In this document: one piece after another, positions 1 to 5,573 of the stretch | Layout of the letters: each line of letters starts with the position of its first letter | How positions within the stretch are numbered: the first letter of the stretch is position 1 | Source of the DNA: a virus | Lineage: Duplodnaviria; Heunggongvirae; Uroviricota; Caudoviricetes | Length of the DNA stretch: 5,573 nucleotides | Reading direction: 5' to 3' (one strand) | IMG/VR virus record: IMGVR_UViG_2724679140_000005 | Made by a program: the position numbers and the translations under genes | Notes under the pieces: generated by a model | The model's database searches: none | Told to the model about the DNA's origin: nothing | The model's input: the letters and a program-made list of their open reading frames with translations, nothing else

Positions 1-174
1 ACAGTGCAGCAGCGCATCAGTGGCTTCCTTAAGCGTCACAGTGTCGCCATCACCCAGTCCTGCAATTTTTTCGTGCCTGACAAACGCCGCGCAAAGGTCG
101 TTAAACGCCCCTGCCCGCACATCCGCCAGGAAAGCGTTGGCAGCAGCCAAATCCTGGTAGTCAATCCCGCTCAC
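1..174 (-). CDS. Hypothetical protein, 5' part only (runs off the left edge); starts with GTG at 174-172, which overlaps the TGA stop of the upstream gene (GTGA)
   Basis: Minus-strand frame is open from 174 to position 1 (VSGIDYQDLAAANAFLADVRAGAF...). AGGAGG (complement of 183-188) lies 8 nt upstream of the GTG. Same orientation and coupling as the preceding gene. The plus-strand ORF 4..189 is the alternative reading. Confidence 0.4.
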   Translation of the reverse strand, partial: MSGIDYQDLAAANAFLADVRAGAFNDLCAAFVRHEKIAGLGDGDTVTLKEATDALLHC

Positions 175-593
175 AGTACCGCCTCCTGAAAATTACCCTG
201 ATAGAAAGCCAGTACACGCTGCATAACTTCGCTTTTACGACACTCAGTACAAATTATATTATGACGCCTGTCATAGCGGCGTATTTCTCCGTCTGGTAAT
301 GACCATATAATGTCCGGATCAACCGCAGATGGTTTCTTCAGCTTTGCCCTTGAGAGCTTTTTACGGGCATTTTGCCAGTCCTTACGCGCCTGTTCAGACG
401 GGAATAACCCGTAACCAGAGCTGTATACATCGCCACTGGCAACCAGCTCTCTGGTCAGAACGCTCATCAGATATCTTGTTGCCCCAGTTTTAGCTTCCAG
501 TTGTCGTAACGTCTCGCGCCCACTCTGGCGTACGAGTTCAACAACCAGCCCTTTAATTTTTTCCCGCTCTTCTTGTGTAAAAACTTTTGCCAC
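171..593 (-). CDS. Hypothetical phage protein (140 aa) immediately downstream of the replication initiator; function unknown, possibly replication-associated
   Basis: ORF-track ORF with GTG start at 593-591 preceded by AGGAGG (complement of 598-603, 4-nt spacer). No Walker A motif, so not an obvious DnaC-type loader. Stop overlaps the next start (GTGA at 171-174). Confidence 0.6.
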   Translation of the reverse strand: MAKVFTQEEREKIKGLVVELVRQSGRETLRQLEAKTGATRYLMSVLTRELVASGDVYSSGYGLFPSEQARKDWQNARKKLSRAKLKKPSAVDPDIIWSLPDGEIRRYDRRHNIICTECRKSEVMQRVLAFYQGNFQEAVL

Positions 594-636: not shown

Positions 637-1710
637 TCACCTGAAGCCCGGCGGAATTTCGTTATCCGGTTCAGAAATATGATTCACACAACGCTGGCTG
701 TTCGTGCCGCTTACCGGGAGCAACCAGGGGTTCTCAAAATTCCGGTCCGGTCCAAAAAACGTCGTCGCTCGCTGAACAAATTCCGTTCCCGTTTTCCCGG
801 TAGTCGCCAGGTATCTTGCGTAACGCCTCACGCCATCCAGCATGGCCTCTGGTGGCACCCCCTCGCGTAATCTGGCCTTCCAGGCACTGAAAGCGGATTT
901 CTTCGGGTTTGCTCCGGCACGCAACGGGTACTCCCGCCAGACCTGTTCGAACACATCCGGATAATCCACTCGTCCCACAGACTGCCCGGTGTTTTCCGGG
1001 ACTACCCGATCGGCTTCCCGCTGAATGGCGGAATCGGCTTCGGGCTGCTGCAGTTGGTGTGATTGCTCCGGCCTTGCGGTCATCACCTGCTGCACAGCGC
1101 CCGAATCGGCTTTCAGCGCATACGCTGAATCGGCTTCCGGTGTCGTGCCTGCTGGCTGACCAGGATTGACGGTCTGAACATCCCCTGCCTGGTTCGTGGC
1201 GTTTTTTACGCCATGGACCATAGTGTTTTGATCTTCTTGATCTGTATCTTTATCTGTATCTTTATCTGTCGTGACTCGTCGTGACATGTGCGTGACATTT
1301 CGTGACGCGCCGTGACAATCGCTATTTTGTTCCCGCTTTCTTTCCCTCTCTCGCTGCGCCCTCTTGCGCTCTGCAGGAGATTTTGCGGTTTGCGAAATAT
1401 TGCCGTTGTCCTCTTTCAGCACCTGGCGTTTTTCCCATCCAGTGATTAAATCACCATCAAGTACCCGCCCCTGCATCGTCTGCAAAATTGAATCAATTAC
1501 CTCTTCTGTCACGTCGAGCGCACTTGCCAAATCTTCTGTCGTGACATCAATGTGACCTCGCGTGACATTTCGTGACGCGCTCACCAGGAGGTGGATATAC
1601 ACTGCCATCACTGTTGCAATTGGCTGCCCTGACACCCTGGCAATTGTTCGCCACTTAGGGTCATTTGGCATGTCATGCCATAATCTGAGCCAGGCGTTAG
1701 CCATACTCAC
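637..1710 (-). CDS. Phage replication initiation protein (lambda O-like / replisome organiser), with iteron clusters inside its N-terminal coding half
   Basis: 357-aa ORF. The N-terminus (AWLRLWHDMPNDPKW...VMAVYIHLL) resembles replisome-organiser N-terminal domains as I recall them. Position directly after ydaS-ydaT matches Rac/Qin-type replication modules. The track start is GTG at 1710; ATG at 1704-1702 with AGAGGTG just upstream is the more likely initiation codon. Confidence 0.8.
   Translation of the reverse strand: MSMANAWLRLWHDMPNDPKWRTIARVSGQPIATVMAVYIHLLVSASRNVTRGHIDVTTEDLASALDVTEEVIDSILQTMQGRVLDGDLITGWEKRQVLKEDNGNISQTAKSPAERKRAQRERERKREQNSDCHGASRNVTHMSRRVTTDKDTDKDTDQEDQNTMVHGVKNATNQAGDVQTVNPGQPAGTTPEADSAYALKADSGAVQQVMTARPEQSHQLQQPEADSAIQREADRVVPENTGQSVGRVDYPDVFEQVWREYPLRAGANPKKSAFSAWKARLREGVPPEAMLDGVRRYARYLATTGKTGTEFVQRATTFFGPDRNFENPWLLPVSGTNSQRCVNHISEPDNEIPPGFR
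1241..1268. repeat. Tandem 12-bp repeat (tctgtatcttta x2 plus a partial copy), relatively AT-rich; encodes the DKDTDKDTD linker of the replication protein
   Basis: Direct reading: tctgtatcttta at 1241-1252 and 1253-1264, then tctgtc. Sits immediately next to the iteron cluster. Confidence 0.7.
1269..1320. repeat. Iteron-like cluster 1: five CGTGAC/GTGAC copies at ~10-11 bp spacing; candidate origin of replication inside the initiator gene
   Basis: GTGAC at about 1271, 1281, 1292, 1302 and 1312. Contains the 20-mer cgtgacatttcgtgacgcgc (1291-1310), which recurs exactly at 1561-1580. Confidence 0.6.
1541..1580. repeat. Iteron-like cluster 2: four GTGAC copies at ~10-11 bp spacing, including an exact 20-bp copy of the cluster-1 element
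   Basis: GTGAC at 1541, 1552, 1562 and 1572. 1561-1580 is identical to 1291-1310. Confidence 0.6.
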
Positions 1711-1775: not shown

Positions 1776-2201
1776 TCAATGTACTGCCACAGCATTTCCT
1801 GCCGGGCCACCACGGTTCATCTGATTGAAACCGGCGATTGCCACTGCGACAAAATCATCAGCGTCTCTCACCAGTCGCTCCCGCGTCTCCACCAGCTCCC
1901 GAAAATAAGCTGAACTGTGGCTGCGCATTCTGGCCACCAGCAAAGGTGGCATTGCCTTTTCGATCGCTGGTAACAACGCCTGAATTTTTTTAACCGCATC
2001 AGGAGTGTCTTTCTCCACCCAGCGGAAAATTTTCTGGGTATTGCGAGCCAGGGCTTCCGGATGGCTGTCGTCGTACAGCTCAGGAAACGTCATGCCCAGC
2101 TCGAAATAAGCCCTGGTTATCCTGGCTGCTGGCACTTTTTCACCGTCCGGATGCGCCCAGGCATTCATCGCCATGCGGATATGCTCATGCTTGATTTTCA
2201 T
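1776..2201 (-). CDS. ydaT: YdaT-like protein (CII-like regulator of Rac-type prophages)
   Basis: 141 aa beginning MKIKHEHI and ending ...VAVH, which resembles E. coli Rac YdaT as I recall it. Start ATG (2201-2199) overlaps the ydaS stop (ATGA). Confidence 0.8.
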   Translation of the reverse strand: MKIKHEHIRMAMNAWAHPDGEKVPAARITRAYFELGMTFPELYDDSHPEALARNTQKIFRWVEKDTPDAVKKIQALLPAIEKAMPPLLVARMRSHSSAYFRELVETRERLVRDADDFVAVAIAGFNQMNRGGPAGNAVAVH

Positions 2202-2500
2202 GAATCAACTCCATCAGATAAGCATGCACTACAATCACCTTCAGCATGAACTACATGCGTTTGCCCCAAACGAATGCCGCTCGCATACTCAGGCCAAATA
2301 AGTTCCCAATCATGGGGTCGTAGCTCCGCCCTACTTACTTGGCCTTCCGTAGCAGATTCGATCATAAGGGCGCGGGTTGGAGATATAGCTGCTCGTCCAG
2401 ACGCCATTTGCGATAAGTAAGATGGCGATACACCAAGTCTGGCCGCGAATTTCTTAGCATCACCAACCCTCAATGATTTAATAAACTCTTTTAATGTCAT
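2198..2500 (-). CDS. ydaS: Cro-like HTH regulator, YdaS family
   Basis: 100 aa with an HTH segment (AARLGVSPSYLSQMASGR) and an IESATEGQVSRAELRP motif resembling YdaS. GAGGAAGG RBS just upstream of the ATG at 2500. Divergent from the repressor gene. Confidence 0.8.
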   Translation of the reverse strand: MTLKEFIKSLRVGDAKKFAARLGVSPSYLSQMASGRAAISPTRALMIESATEGQVSRAELRPHDWELIWPEYASGIRLGQTHVVHAEGDCSACLSDGVDS

Positions 2501-2596
2501 ACCTTCCTCGATTTAGTGTTTTTTGCGAGTTTAGTGTTTAATAAACCATTAAGTCAAGTATTTGCTTGTTTAGTGATTACTAAAGATAATTACCAC
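2501..2596. promoter_or_regulatory. Divergent control region (OR/PR/PRM-like) between the cro-like ydaS and the CI-like repressor, with repeated operator-like motifs
   Basis: TTTAGTGTT at 2512-2520 and 2530-2538, TTTAGTGA at 2569-2576, and the near-palindrome GTTTAATAAAC at 2535-2545. AT-rich 96-bp gap between divergent starts. Confidence 0.55.
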
Positions 2597-2968
2597 ATGC
2601 AAAAAAAAGAAATTCGCCGTTTACGTCTCAAGGAGTGGTTTAAAGATAAAACTCTGCCACCCAAAGAGAAGAGCTACCTATCTCAACTAATGAGTGGGAG
2701 AGCCTCGTTTGGAGAAAAGGCTGCCAGAAGAATAGAGCAAACATACGGGATGCCGGATGGGTATCTAGATGTGGAATACGCAGAACAACCTGAGGTTTCT
2801 CCACCACATGCAGGGTTAACGTCTAATCAACTGGAATTATTGCAGATTTTTTCAGCCTTCCCTGAGGATGAGCAACGCCAGATAATCAGCGAGTTAAAGC
2901 AGAAAAAAGAATCAATGGAAGATCTCATAGCGAGATGGATTGCGGCGCAAAAATGCCGCCGCGCCTGA
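2597..2968 (+). CDS. paaR2: CI-like HTH repressor, likely PaaR2 (regulator of the paaR2-paaA2-parE2 module and probable prophage repressor)
   Basis: HTH region (KSYLSQLMSGRASFGEKAARRIEQTYGMPDGYLD) of lambda-repressor/XRE type. Divergent from the cro-like gene and directly upstream of paaA2-parE2. The track ORF starts at ATG 2516, but that N-terminal extension is hydrophobic and overlaps the operator repeats, so ATG 2597 (MQKKEIRR...) is preferred; start uncertain. Confidence 0.7.
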   Translation: MQKKEIRRLRLKEWFKDKTLPPKEKSYLSQLMSGRASFGEKAARRIEQTYGMPDGYLDVEYAEQPEVSPPHAGLTSNQLELLQIFSAFPEDEQRQIISELKQKKESMEDLIARWIAAQKCRRA

Positions 2969-2988
2969 GTTATAAAACCGGAGGAAAC

Positions 2989-3180
2989 ATGAATAGAGTC
3001 CTTTCACCAATGGTTTCTGAATTTGAAACCATTGAACAAGAAAACAGTTACAACGAATGGCTGCGTGCGAAAGTAGCAACAAGCCTTGCAGATCCGCGCC
3101 CAGCAATTCCCCATGACGAAGTTGAGCGCAGAATGGCAGAACGCTTTGCTAAAATGCGGAAGGAACGGAGCAAGCAGTAA
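2989..3180 (+). CDS. paaA2: PaaA2-type antitoxin (ParE-associated antitoxin)
   Basis: 63 aa (MNRVLSPMVSEFETIEQENSYNEWLRAK...KERSKQ) matching the PaaA2 antitoxin of E. coli O157 as I remember it; the paralog number is uncertain. GGAGG RBS 5 nt upstream of ATG 2989. The track's longer ORF from 2935 overlaps the repressor 3' end. Confidence 0.8.
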   Translation: MNRVLSPMVSEFETIEQENSYNEWLRAKVATSLADPRPAIPHDEVERRMAERFAKMRKERSKQ

Positions 3181-3181
3181 A

Positions 3182-3460
3182 ATGTTACCCGTGTTATGGC
3201 TTGAAAGTGCAGATACCGACCTAGATGATATAACTAGTTATATTGCTCGTTTCGACGTAGATGCGGCTGAACGCTTATGGCAGCGATTAAGGGGTTGTGT
3301 GCTGCCATTATCCGAACATCCGTATTTATACCCACCAAGCGACAGAGTACCTGGCTTGCGTGAGATTGTGGCCCACCCTAACTATATAATTCTATACCGC
3401 GTAACAACATCAAGCGTTGAAGTAGTAAACGTGATCCACGCAAGACGCCAGTTTCCCTAA
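3182..3460 (+). CDS. parE2: ParE-family toxin (ParE2-like, RelE/ParE superfamily)
   Basis: 92 aa from ATG 3182, one nt after the paaA2 stop. C-terminal signature typical of ParE (YIILYRV...VEVVNVIHARRQFP). The track ORF 3086..3460 is an upstream-extended version in the same frame. Confidence 0.8.
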   Translation: MLPVLWLESADTDLDDITSYIARFDVDAAERLWQRLRGCVLPLSEHPYLYPPSDRVPGLREIVAHPNYIILYRVTTSSVEVVNVIHARRQFP

Positions 3461-3530
3461 CTTTCACTACCAATAGAAACATAACAACCGCAACGACTTT
3501 ATCAAAAGCGTTGTGTTTGTTACGCCCCAT

Positions 3531-3580
3531 GGTTTAGTTTTTACTTGACTTAAGTTTAATGTTTATTAAACTAAATCTAC
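3531..3580 (+). promoter_or_regulatory. Candidate PL-like promoter for the ydfABC-dicF-dicB operon, with an operator-like motif shared with the 2501-2596 control region
   Basis: TTGACT (3545-3550), 16-bp spacer, TAAACT (3567-3572). Flanked by GTTTAGTTTTT (3531-3541) and GTTTATTAAACTAAATC (3561-3577), whose reverse complement GATTTAGTTTAATAAAC closely matches TTTAGTGTTTAATAAAC at 2530-2546. Confidence 0.45.
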
Positions 3581-3748
3581 CAACCCATCCCGCCCCACAG
3601 AACGCAGGGCAATACTTCGAGTTACCAGGCAGTGGTCAGGGGTTAAGTAGCCAGCCCGAGGCGTAAGAACATGACGGCAGGGTTCAACTTTAACTATGCA
3701 GCAGGTTTTTGTTCCGCTACCCCGGCGTTAAGGGGAAATGAGGTCAGC

Positions 3749-3904
3749 ATGGATACTATCGATCTTGGCAACAACGAATCTCTGGTGTACGGCGTGTTTC
3801 CCAACCAGGACGGCACGTTCACCGCGATGACGTATACCAAAAGCAAAACGTTTAAAACCGAAAATGGTGCCCGTCGCTGGCTGGAAAGAAACTCAGGTGA
3901 GTGA
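3749..3904 (+). CDS. ydfA: YdfA-like small prophage protein (51 aa)
   Basis: MDTIDLGNNESLVYGVFPNQDGTF...RWLERNSGE matches Qin prophage YdfA as recalled. GAGGT RBS upstream of ATG 3749. The track ORF from 3671 is an N-terminally extended version. Confidence 0.7.
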   Translation: MDTIDLGNNESLVYGVFPNQDGTFTAMTYTKSKTFKTENGARRWLERNSGE

Positions 3905-3905
3905 T

Positions 3906-4034
3906 ATGGATTTCGACACAATCATGAAAAAGGCTTACGAAGAATACTTCGAAGGCCTTGCCGAAGGCGAAGAAACTCTCAGCTTCAGCGAATTTAAACA
4001 GGCGCTTTCCCGTTCGGCAAAATCTAACGGCTGA
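3906..4034 (+). CDS. ydfB: YdfB-like small protein (42 aa); not in the supplied ORF track because it is short
   Basis: ATG 3906 sits 1 nt after the ydfA stop, with AGGTGA RBS upstream. Open frame MDFDTIMKKAYEEYFEGLAEGEETLSFSEFKQALSRSAKSNG to TGA at 4032-4034. Gene order ydfA-ydfB-ydfC as in Qin. Confidence 0.6.
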   Translation: MDFDTIMKKAYEEYFEGLAEGEETLSFSEFKQALSRSAKSNG

Positions 4035-4063: not shown

Positions 4064-4282
4064 ATGCAGAAACGAGAACCCGTCATCATCGCGCCAGACT
4101 ATACCGATGATGAACTTTATGAGTGGATGCGCCAGAAAATTAATGCAGCGCAGGATCTGAAATGGGCCAATGAAGCCAGGGTTAAACAGGCTGAAAATCT
4201 GTCCGCTCTGGAGACGGATATCACCAATCTGGAAAAAGCAGCGGCATTAAGCATTGCCAGAATGATTACATACCCACGTTAA
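4064..4282 (+). CDS. ydfC: YdfC-like prophage protein (72 aa)
   Basis: MQKREPVIIAPDYTDDELYEWMRQKINAAQDLKW... matches Qin YdfC as recalled. GAGGAA RBS upstream of the ATG. Confidence 0.75.
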   Translation: MQKREPVIIAPDYTDDELYEWMRQKINAAQDLKWANEARVKQAENLSALETDITNLEKAAALSIARMITYPR

Positions 4283-4304
4283 TAGCTAACCAACGAGGCT
4301 AATA

Positions 4305-4712
4305 ATGGAATTTAAAGATTCACCAAAAGAAATCCAGACAATTGCTGCAACGGCTCTCGGTGATAGTCTGGTGAAAATTGACCCGGCATACACCAAAAAA
4401 GAAACCATCGATAATATGGTTCGTAATGTGCGCAATGCTTTTTCTGGGCTATATGGTCCTGATAATCAAAAGCAGGAAAGCGATGTTAATAAACGGGTAA
4501 TTTCTGTTTGCGTGAATGGCCATGTTCTTTCATCAATCAAAACAGAAACAGCGACAGTCTTCGATTGCCTTTGCATTGTACAGAGCCTTGTTGATGCCCT
4601 GTTTCGTTCAGTGAATTTAGAAAATGATGCAAATCTGCGAGGGCGCACAATAGCACATCCATATGCACATACTTTAGGCTCTGTGGATATCAAAGATCCC
4701 ACAAATCTTTAA
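4305..4712 (+). CDS. Hypothetical protein (135 aa) in an AT-rich insert; function unknown
   Basis: ORF with GAGG RBS ~8 nt upstream of the ATG. Local GC is clearly lower than in flanking prophage genes. I recognise no motifs. Confidence 0.55.
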   Translation: MEFKDSPKEIQTIAATALGDSLVKIDPAYTKKETIDNMVRNVRNAFSGLYGPDNQKQESDVNKRVISVCVNGHVLSSIKTETATVFDCLCIVQSLVDALFRSVNLENDANLRGRTIAHPYAHTLGSVDIKDPTNL

Positions 4713-4923
4713 TGAAATAGTTAACGCGAATTGTACTTGCTCTTTCAGTTGCTTTCAGAATACGCGTTGAAACTGCTGGCGGTAATTTGGTATTCCATTT
4801 ATTAAAATCATGCCCGGGAAAGTACTCTTCGAAAATACTTTTAACTGCAGACTCGCCTATTGAAATGCTGCTTACCATGCGACTTTGATAAAGGCATTTA
4901 GCAATAAGAGTTGATTTTAACAT
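4690..4923 (-). CDS. Hypothetical small protein (77 aa), convergent with and overlapping the 3' end of the 135-aa gene
   Basis: ATG at 4923-4921 preceded by AGGAGG (complement of 4928-4933, 4-nt spacer). AT-rich. Overlaps 4305..4712 by 23 bp at the 3' ends. Confidence 0.5.
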   Translation of the reverse strand: MLKSTLIAKCLYQSRMVSSISIGESAVKSIFEEYFPGHDFNKWNTKLPPAVSTRILKATERASTIRVNYFIKDLWDL

Positions 4924-4936
4924 TCACCCTCCTGAA

Positions 4937-5256
4937 GGTTGGTAATTAAGGAGTTCTCCACGGGTGAGGTGGAGTGCGTGCGCCGGACACGGGTGAACAT
5001 CCGGCACAGACAGTTTACTGAAAGGATATTTCCCTGAAAAGTCAGACCATAACGCGAAAGCGCACGGCGAGGTAGCTGGTTCATAGATAGCCTGTCGTTA
5101 AATTTTCGTCGACCGTGCGCTTCCGGTTGTGGCACTCCGCGAAATGGCGCGGCGGTAAGTATAGCGGGGTTATTCCTTCCCCGTTGAGGACACCGGGTTG
5201 TCAGGTTGACCATACGCTTAAGTGACAACCCCGCTGCAACGCCCTCTGTTATCAAT
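4937..5256 (+). other. GC-rich structured non-coding leader upstream of DicF (probable dicF precursor/processing region)
   Basis: Perfect inverted repeats: aagcgcacgg (5058-5067) with ccgtgcgctt (5113-5122); gggttgtca (5195-5203) with tgacaaccc (5223-5231); gccgga (4982-4987) with tccggc (5000-5005). The only ORF here (minus 4917..5255) is Arg-rich and implausible. Confidence 0.4.
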
Positions 5257-5314
5257 TTTCTGGTGACGTTTGGCGGTATCAGTTTTACTACGTGACTGCT
5301 CTGCCGCCCTTTTT
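5257..5314 (+). ncRNA. dicF: DicF small regulatory RNA (antisense inhibitor of ftsZ translation) with intrinsic terminator
   Basis: Sequence beginning tttctggtgacgtttggcggtatcag... and ending ...ctgctctgccgccc followed by ttttt matches DicF as I recall it. Located directly upstream of dicB, as in Qin. Confidence 0.75.
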
Positions 5315-5484
5315 AAAGTGAATTTTGTGATGCGGTGAATGCGGCTAAGCGCACGCGGAACAGTTAAAACCAAAAACAGTGTTATGGGTGGATTCTCTGT
5401 ATCCGGCGTTAATTGTTAACTGGTTAACGTCACCTGGAGGCACCAGGCACTGCATCACAAAATTCATTGTTGAGGACGCGATAA

Positions 5485-5573
5485 TGAAAACGTTATTACC
5501 AAACGTTAATACGTCTGAAGGTTGTTTTGAAATTGGTGTCACTATCAGTAACCCTGTATTTACTGAAGATGCC
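5485..5573 (+). CDS. dicB: DicB cell-division inhibitor, 5' part only (runs off the right edge)
   Basis: ATG 5485 preceded by a GAGGA RBS. N-terminus MKTLLPNVNTSEGCFEIGVTISNPVFTEDA matches DicB as recalled. Confidence 0.8.

Follow-up and report, generated by a model that had tools for sequence, protein, structure and literature searches.

Gene map of the immunity region

The DNA under investigation is a stretch of 5573 bp (hereafter, the window) that corresponds to the immunity region of a lambdoid E. coli prophage resembling CP-933P/Qin. The closest database match of the portion 2400-3800 is found in E. coli strain M3, with an identity of 99.1% across the full 1401-bp query, and at least 80% of this query is present in 594 of 5426 complete E. 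coli genomes. The gene map, which is based on the annotation of the strain M3 relative and on Pfam, PHROGs, and Rfam, reveals that the O-like gene, ydaT, and ydaS are followed by paaR2-paaA2-parE2, and these in turn by ydfA-ydfB-ydfC and, farther on, by dicF-dicB. The genes are the following:

171-593, minus strand: Ren-like gene
637-1710, minus strand: replication-initiator gene (O-like)
1776-2201, minus strand: ydaT
2198-2500, minus strand: ydaS, Cro analogue (Pfam YdaS_toxin, HTH_3, and P22_Cro; PMC8630535)
2597-2968, plus strand: paaR2, leaderless gene of a CI-like repressor (97% identity to O157 PaaR2; phrog_5736, transcriptional regulator)
2989-3180, plus strand: paaA2 (Pfam PaaA2, 1e-19)
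3182-3460, plus strand: parE2 (Pfam ParE_toxin, 8e-17)
3749-3904, plus strand: ydfA (Pfam DUF1391; M3 annotation)
3906-4034, plus strand: ydfB
4064-4282, plus strand: ydfC
4305-4712, plus strand: ORF of unknown function
4690-4923, minus strand: ORF of unknown function, between ydfC and dicF
5258-5309, plus strand: dicF (Rfam DicF, 73.4 bits)
5484 onward, plus strand: dicB (start only)

The PaaR2 protein encoded by the window begins with MQKKE, which is the same N-terminus as that of the protein sequenced in PMC8630535. In strain M3, the region beyond dicB harbors, on the same strand, ydfD, an exonuclease gene, a gene for a DUF4224 protein, and an integrase gene adjoining a tRNA-Ser gene; in the relatives, the early-left genes located past dicB (exonuclease, excisionase-like, integrase) are probably co-transcribed from PL, the promoter lying between parE2 and ydfA that is described below. 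The Rfam search performed on the entire window (E ≤ 1) returned two matches only, DicF at 5258-5309 and, below the threshold, STnc100 over the dicF-dicB region; zero matches (E ≤ 1) fall within 3461-3750.

Between parE2 and PL, the plus strand can form a stable hairpin (3482-3522, inverted repeat I5), whose fold z-score is -3.9, with none of 200 shuffles being as stable. In one locus (L042), both substitutions are located in the 3' arm of the hairpin and improve its pairing, and the paralogous locus L005 has, in its place, a canonical terminator with a GC stem and a T-run. The hairpin probably represents the 3' end, or a terminator-like element, of the paaR2-paaA2-parE2 transcript, and read-through from PRM past this non-canonical structure could be a further feed of the downstream operon. 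A promoter-like site on the minus strand (3505-3478), embedded in the hairpin and devoid of supporting context, was considered as a chance match.

A promoter with operator-like repeats downstream of parE2

The gap existing between parE2, which ends at 3460, and ydfA contains a promoter (3545-3572) oriented on the same strand and pointing away from the locus. The features of this region, together with those of the ydaS/paaR2 intergenic region to which it is related, are listed below:

2511-2585: cluster of OR-type operators between ydaS and paaR2 (origin of the motif also seen at PL), with DNase I footprints of PaaR2 and YdaS (PMC8630535)
2528-2557, minus strand: PR, promoter of ydaS-ydaT (TTGACT, 18-bp spacer, TAAACT), with its start mapped by 5' RACE (PMC8630535)
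3532-3549: operator-like 18-bp inverted repeat with halves GTTTAGTTT and TTACTTGAC, overlapping the -35 (repeat families D2 and D3)
3545-3550, plus strand: -35 hexamer of PL, TTGACT, the same as that of the minus-strand PR (2557-2552)
3554-3571: operator-like 18-bp palindrome GTTTAATgtttATTAAAC with halves GTTTAATGT and TTATTAAAC, spanning the spacer and the -10 (inverted repeat I24)
3567-3572, plus strand: -10 hexamer of PL, TAAACT, the same as that of PR (2533-2528)
3570-3576, minus strand: additional half-site, ATTTAGT, which overlaps the -10 and extends into the bases just beyond it
3579, plus strand: predicted transcription start, 7 nt after the -10, where the homology among at least 10 immunity types begins
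3579-3748, plus strand: predicted untranslated leader of the PL transcript, with a core (3579-3680) nearly invariant across immunity types

The two hexamers of PL and the 16-bp spacer between them (3551-3566) lie exactly where an earlier reading of this DNA, made from the sequence alone (the sequence-only reading), had placed them, and the flanking sequences that it had pointed out, GTTTAGTTTTT and GTTTATTAAACTAAATC, are indeed present at 3532-3542 and 3561-3577. The promoter consensus scan lists the PL site with a match of 9/12; since the number of such sites in the window (11) resembles that of the shuffles (7.3 +/- 2.4), the consensus match alone is not significant, and it was dropped as the sole evidence for a promoter.

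It is the tie to the paaR2/ydaS intergenic region that brings the PL site beyond chance. The sequence TACTTGACTTAA (3542-3553) is 100% complementary to 2549-2560, and the 24 nt at 3548-3571 are 79% complementary to 2536-2559. When 3525-3590 is locally aligned with the minus strand of 2505-2590, the score is 30, a value that was reached by none of 2000 dinucleotide shuffles (15.1 +/- 2.6). PL is, therefore, an inverted near-copy of PR. The identity of the hexamers of the two promoters can be explained on the basis of the operator half-site (A/T)TAAAC, which, followed by a T, generates the -10 TAAACT in both of them.

The relationship of the single repeats is of a different kind. The sequence-only reading had suggested that the motif at PL corresponds, in inverted orientation, to the element located at 2530-2546; the similarity stands, the inversion does not, since the palindrome at 3554-3571 (a near-palindrome of the form GTTTAAT-gttt-ATTAAAC) matches 2529-2546 (GTTTAGTGTTTAATAAAC) better in direct orientation, with 16 of the 18 positions being identical. 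The inversion relative to PR applies to the promoter as a whole and not to the single motif. The repeats at 2529-2546 and 3554-3571 have the same register relative to the -10 hexamers that they cover (of PR and PL, respectively); in the case of PL, five of the six bases of the -10 fall in the right half-site of the palindrome. In the same way, the repeat at 3532-3549 takes in five of the six bases of the -35, and families D2 and D3, to which it belongs, also include 2529-2542 and 2568-2581. The centres of the two palindromes of PL are 22 bp apart, i.e., about two helical turns. As for the half-site itself, GTTTAGT (with one mismatch at most) occurs five times within 3525-3590, compared with 0.57 expected occurrences (just 2 of 5000 shuffles contain as many), and the six TTTAGT hexamers present on both strands of the 5573-bp window are all located inside 2512-2584 or 3533-3575. 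These elements are conserved: TTGACT and TAAACT are each unchanged in 11 of the 12 distinct PL sequences of the PaaR2 type, in which variation clusters in the flanks, outside both the hexamers and the repeats.

The CP-933P prophage of E. coli O157:H7 EDL933 is the locus studied by Jurenas et al. (2021, mBio; PMC8630535), who described PaaR2 as a leaderless CI analogue, YdaS as a Cro analogue, and YdaT as a CII analogue. In that work, the starts mapped by 5' RACE are those of PRM and PR only, and the DNase I footprints of both proteins concern only the 97-bp intergenic region, which contains 18-bp inverted repeats with the half-site consensus GTTTAGTAA, organized as four inverted repeats and three pseudosymmetric operators at OR (PMC8630535). 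Repeats of the GTTTAGTAA type are common to this footprinted region and to PL, as revealed by repeat families D1-D3, by the half-site map, and by the enrichment over shuffles. In the same paper, a PL/OL analogue was also sought; it was named PL933P, its operators were designated OL1-3, and it was fused to gfp (PMC8630535). The cloned PL933P fragment is an active promoter by itself, and the expression of the PL933P-gfp fusion is repressed about 100-fold by PaaR2, and also by YdaS, the repression being visible already at the basal level of PaaR2 (PMC8630535). The three OL operators reported in a figure of that paper compare with the two clear palindromes and one extra half-site located here.

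The position of PL933P relative to the RAE2 locus (RAE2 being the abbreviation for paaR2-paaA2-parE2) is given in two ways in PMC8630535, that is, "upstream of the RAE2 locus" in the text and "a downstream RAE2 region" in the legend of Fig. 2. The discrepancy is settled by the primers, since F-PL (CTTTCACTACCAATAGAAACA) matches window positions 3461-3481 (21/21) and R-PL matches 3557-3578 (20/22), so that PL933P lies downstream of the RAE2 locus. The corresponding fragment of the window is identical to the O157:H7 sequence at 112 of 118 positions (95%). None of the six differences affects the hexamers or the palindromes: they occur in the segment separating the hairpin from the first repeat and just behind the -10, in the six bases that lead up to the predicted start, two of which are not those of the tested EDL933 fragment. 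The repressor itself is 97% identical to the O157 protein, and residues 1-53 are the same in both.

On the whole, the PL element of the window is PL933P, already known from 2021, and does not represent a new feature. The work of Jurenas et al. on a near-identical locus supports the interpretation advanced by the sequence-only reading: the PL-like promoter under the control of the repressor of the intergenic region is what PMC8630535 shows in the CP-933P of O157:H7, and the toxin-antitoxin pair (paaA2-parE2, 2989-3460) does lie between PRM and PL, as it does in that paper. PL of the window would be repressible by PaaR2 and YdaS as well, and the prerequisites are present, namely, conserved sites and an identical N-terminal region of PaaR2. 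Very probably, the stretch 3531-3580 acts as the PL/OL of a lambdoid immunity region of the CP-933P type, containing a sigma-70 promoter with a predicted start at about 3579.

Other immunity types and the conserved leader

A much larger set of genomes shares a part of this region. Matches to some part of the query 2400-3800 occur in 4355 of the 5426 complete E. coli genomes (about 80%), in a median of two places each, and most of them cover only the sequence from about 3577 onward. An IMG/VR sample was scanned for a 16-mer of the leader, and the sequence upstream of each match was extracted. At least 10 clearly different promoter-plus-palindrome types were disclosed in this sample, each of them ending 6-9 nt before the common sequence ACCAACCCACCCCGCCCCACAGAACGC; in other words, each of these immunity types possesses its own palindromic repeats on a promoter placed at the equivalent spot, directly upstream of the common leader. 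In Rac, a TTGACA-17-TATAGT promoter is located downstream of racR, directly before the homologous leader, and ATTAGGC repeats surround this promoter and also fill the racR/ydaS intergenic region. In the Qin prophage of K-12, dicBp (TTGACC-17-TAATCT) carries TGTTAGTCAT-type repeats, as in the published DicA operator Oc. A locus harboring a PaaR2 paralogue (73% identical repressor) exhibits TTGACT and TAAACT hexamers with its own variant repeats. The comparison of Rac, K-12 Qin, and the PaaR2 type shows that the repeats of PL and OR change together with the immunity type.

Since the homology among immunity types breaks at about 3579, the PL transcript is predicted to start there. The comparison of different immunity types provides, in this way, a sequence-based pointer to the PL start that is of use for many related prophages of E. 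coli (a large family), and it also brings to light the conserved leader. The core of the leader (3579-3680) is nearly invariant among 51 distinct sequences belonging to many immunity types, and many indels are found after about 3680; its 5' end shows the largest excess of C over G of the window. The leader does not fold better than shuffles (z-score of +1.66 for 102 nt and +1.0 for 172 nt), its RNAalifold consensus has zero pairs with compensatory (both-sided) changes, the variable positions of the core lack a three-base periodicity, and no second copy of it was found in the window or in the relatives.

A coding function was considered for the leader on the basis of an upstream ORF starting at the ATG 3671 (MTAGF...), which in the window is fused in frame to ydfA and in Rac and in L005 terminates with a TAA that overlaps the ribosome-binding site coming next. 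This ORF is not convincingly coding, in that its start codon is conserved, but non-triplet indels shift the frame and the stop among the relatives. An antiterminator of the HK022 put type was also considered. The position of the leader, which starts at the predicted +1 immediately downstream of PL, would fit such an element, and among the immunity types preceding this leader, there is one whose operators (TGTAC/GTACT) resemble those of HK022 and whose -35 is TTTACA. A put RNA is a stable structure of about 70 nt with two stem-loops, and it is present a second time in the PR operon. However, neither sequence similarity to putL nor a comparable structure was detected: the first 75 nt of the leader fold at -15.4 kcal/mol, compared with -23.7 for 75 nt of putL (the numbering of the HK022 PL-putL sequence was checked against the base pairs described in PMC9378689), and a blastn search with putL gave zero matches in the leader, the only matches being inside a coding ORF about 7 kb off and on the wrong strand. 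A 21-nt putL-like match present in related loci was dismissed, as it falls inside a minus-strand ORF of 349 aa.

It is doubtful that the core 3579-3680 has a function of its own as a cis-acting element, at the RNA or DNA level. If so, it might be a Rho-loading or attenuation site, keeping leaky PL transcription off the toxic dicB/kil genes, or a new kind of processivity signal; alternatively, it might simply be a module boundary homogenised by recombination. The idea of a Rho site gains no support from the published Rho terminator of Rac (trac), because this is located inside racR and not in the leader (PMC4150792).

Regulatory role and comparison with known systems

According to the arrangement described above, PL would fire rightward, away from the repressor operon and into ydfA-ydfB-ydfC and dicF-dicB. 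Its role as the driver of ydfABC-dicF-dicB is suggested by its position and by the K-12 analogue, and PL might be the main source of dicF and dicB transcripts in this strain. In the lysogen, PaaR2 bound to the two palindromes would cover both the -35 and the -10 and exclude RNA polymerase, presumably by steric occlusion, so that ydfABC-dicF-dicB would be silent, as would the same-strand exonuclease, excisionase-like, and integrase genes of the relatives. The repeats are the likely points of contact with the repressor at PL, and the Cro analogue YdaS would bind the same sites. Octameric PaaR2 might also join OL and OR by looping across about 990 bp, which is plausible. By analogy with DicA (PMC10448788), RecA-type self-cleavage is not expected for PaaR2, since this protein is short (123 aa).

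Looping leads to a different view of the site, that is, that it might be mainly an OL-type anchor for looping with OR, where a bridge of octameric PaaR2 would tighten the repression of PR and tune PRM, the promoter activity being secondary. The octamers formed by PaaR2 in solution and the analogy with lambda OL-OR raised by the authors (PMC8630535), as well as the distance between the two operator clusters (2552-2557 versus 3545-3550), speak for such an anchor. Nevertheless, the cloned fragment works as a promoter by itself (PMC8630535), the hexamers are conserved as much as the repeats, and a good promoter is retained at the exact spot in each of the other immunity types, so that anchoring as the main role, although possible, seems rather unlikely; moreover, it would overlap with the role of PL as a repressible early-left promoter rather than replace it.

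The remaining alternatives deny either the promoter or its repressor. The repeats might be 3'-end signals of the paaR2-paaA2-parE2 transcript (a terminator or a stabiliser) instead of operators, given the significantly stable hairpin just upstream and a T-run at 3537-3542. Yet the hairpin is a separate structure, whose end lies 10 bp ahead of the first repeat, the scan for terminators gave no call within 3531-3580, and the repeats match the footprinted operators of the intergenic region, which makes this explanation highly improbable. That PL might be a chance promoter-like match without a regulatory role could be argued from the 68% A+T content of this intergenic region and from the ordinary consensus match discussed above; this is scarcely credible, however, as composition-matched shuffles fall far short of both the observed similarity to PR and the observed number of half-sites, the element is conserved across prophages, and a chance origin is contradicted by the near-identical O157 fragment, which drives gfp under strong repression by PaaR2 (PMC8630535). 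Lastly, the promoter might be a K-12-type dicBp controlled by a DicA-type repressor and not by PaaR2, because it occupies an equal position upstream of ydfA and the downstream ydfA-ydfB-ydfC-dicF-dicB genes are those of the K-12 dicBF operon. The Oc-type DicA operator TTGTTAGTCATAACTAACAA, however, has zero matches anywhere in the window, even when up to three mismatches are allowed, the alignment with K-12 does not reach the promoter region, extending upstream only as far as the final ~45 nt of the leader of ydfA, and PaaR2 resembles DicA only over 55 C-terminal residues (33% identity), to the exclusion of the DNA-binding part. As the window has no DicA operator and PaaR2 is not DicA, control by DicA is rejected, its probability being negligible.

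The annotation of the parE2-ydfA gap can be considered as settled for this window. Since the gap holds a repressor-controlled early-left promoter, the PaaA2-ParE2 pair is placed inside the immunity module, in the position that rexAB has in lambda: the order cI-rexA-rexB followed by PL is mirrored here by paaR2-paaA2-parE2 followed by PL. As in lambda, operators overlapping the hexamers are common to PL and PR, CI and Cro analogues act as repressors, and the repressor forms octamers (PMC8630535). The two systems differ in that they share no sequence homology and that the layout of the repeats is not the same. Early-left genes of the lambdoid type are found downstream of PL, i.e., dicF and dicB in the window and, further on, the exonuclease and integrase genes in M3. 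On reading the leader, neither an N gene nor the boxA/boxB of nutL was seen after PL, where Rfam gave no match either and the first gene is ydfA. The N/nutL feature defines lambda itself, and not all lambdoid phages.

The Rac equivalent of PL is found at the same position, with the conserved leader beginning right behind it (positions 2502-2600 of the Rac locus L004 are 95% identical to window 3579-3678) and with an operator repeat, ATTAGGC, that it has in common with the racR/ydaS region. Unlike the window, Rac has RacR as a repressor, other operators, and ydaG/ydaF, sieB, and kilR as downstream genes; no published assay of this promoter was found in the literature consulted. PL933P is the same element as PL of the window, having the same site just downstream of parE2, the same hexamers as PR, and the same GTTTAGT-type repeats. 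Besides the six substitutions, what changes is the DNA to which the leader is joined: in EDL933, it leads into DNA lacking ydfA and ydfB, with ORFs to which the authors assigned no function (PMC8630535), whereas in the window, it leads into the intact ydfA-ydfB-ydfC and dicF-dicB.

The positional and functional counterpart of PL in K-12 is dicBp, which is located upstream of ydfA and downstream of the repressor gene, in the same direction. This promoter, from which the dicBF operon is transcribed, has been designated as the analogue of PL, and DicA represses it 22-fold (PMC10448788); the sources on dicBp and DicA are Bejar et al. (1988), cited through PMC10448788, and Yun et al. (2012; PMC3441716). 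Each of the two promoters precedes ydfABC-dicF-dicB and has operator repeats in common with its own repressor/cro intergenic region, but these are of the TGTTAGTCAT type in K-12 and of the GTTTAGT type in the window, the repressor specificity being different as well. Furthermore, K-12 has no toxin-antitoxin pair between the repressor gene and the promoter, and its conserved leader is missing the initial ~125 nt. DicF and DicB are predicted to be under the control of PaaR2 and YdaS in this strain, versus DicA and DicC in K-12. By combining a PL933P-type control with the complete ydfABC-dicF-dicB operon of the K-12 type, the window assembles known modules into a mosaic; this arrangement does not introduce a new principle and represents a useful example of an immunity module swapped in front of a conserved cargo operon.

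The repressor gene and the parE2-PL interval

The kinship between PaaR2, the CI-like repressor (2597-2968), and DicA of the K-12 Qin locus (L002 2935-3342) is limited to a stretch of ~55 residues at the C-terminus, which is 33% identical (E 3e-7), the N-terminal DNA-binding parts being unrelated; at the level of sequence, this suggests a common oligomerisation module fused to different DNA-binding heads. Between the parE2 stop codon and PL, the repressor-controlled early-left promoter, a significantly stable structure is located:

3482-3522, hairpin, z -3.9

This hairpin lacks an adjoining U-run. In the relative L042 it carries two substitutions, with each of which pairing improves, and the paralogous locus L005 harbors a canonical terminator at the corresponding position. 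The hairpin is probably the 3' end, or a terminator-like element, of the paaR2-paaA2-parE2 mRNA.

The ydfC-dicF and dicF-dicB spacers

The ydfC-dicF spacer (4283-5257) is 975 bp long in the window versus about 340 in K-12, and contains about 400-600 bp of additional DNA compared with K-12 and with the closely related E. coli strain M3. Two convergently overlapping ORFs are embedded in it:

4305-4712, plus strand, ORF of unassigned function (phrog_1363)
4690-4923, minus strand, ORF of unassigned function (phrog_10348)

Prophages of E. coli frequently carry this segment, at least 80% of its length being present in 644 genomes. Further downstream, a sub-threshold Rfam match to STnc100 (5307-5516; 34.8 bits versus a gathering score of 47) extends across the spacer between dicF and dicB into the beginning of dicB.

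A conserved leader behind PL

The DNA following PL is occupied by two partly overlapping features:

3579-3737 (core 3579-3680), plus strand, highly conserved untranslated leader
3671-3748, short upstream ORF (MTAGF...) with a conserved ATG preceded by GAGG

The 5' end of the leader, which is C-rich, coincides with the predicted PL start. The same leader is found in Rac (L004 2502-2654) and in about 85 IMG/VR loci, where it is preceded by at least ten different promoter/operator types; among the 5426 complete E. coli genomes, 4355 match all or part of window positions 2400-3800, and most of these matches consist of the leader stretch only. Its predicted folding does not exceed that of shuffled sequences, and the Rfam search of the window returned no match in it. 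A Rho-loading site, a processivity signal and a recombination boundary are candidate roles.

As for the short ORF, in Rac and L005 its stop codon is a TAA that overlaps with the following gene's ribosome-binding site, while in the window a one-nucleotide difference joins it in frame with ydfA, forming a 77-aa ORF. Indels altering its frame among the relatives argue against a conserved peptide.

Comparison with HK022

One of the immunity types preceding the leader (IMG/VR loci L012, L015, L019 and others) possesses HK022-like PL operators (TGTACT...GTACT, with a -35 TTTACA), the reference being the HK022 locus L127 (820-900, minus strand). However, where HK022 harbors the antiterminator RNA element putL, these loci carry the conserved leader, which is dissimilar to putL, indicating that the segment directly behind PL and the operators can be swapped separately.
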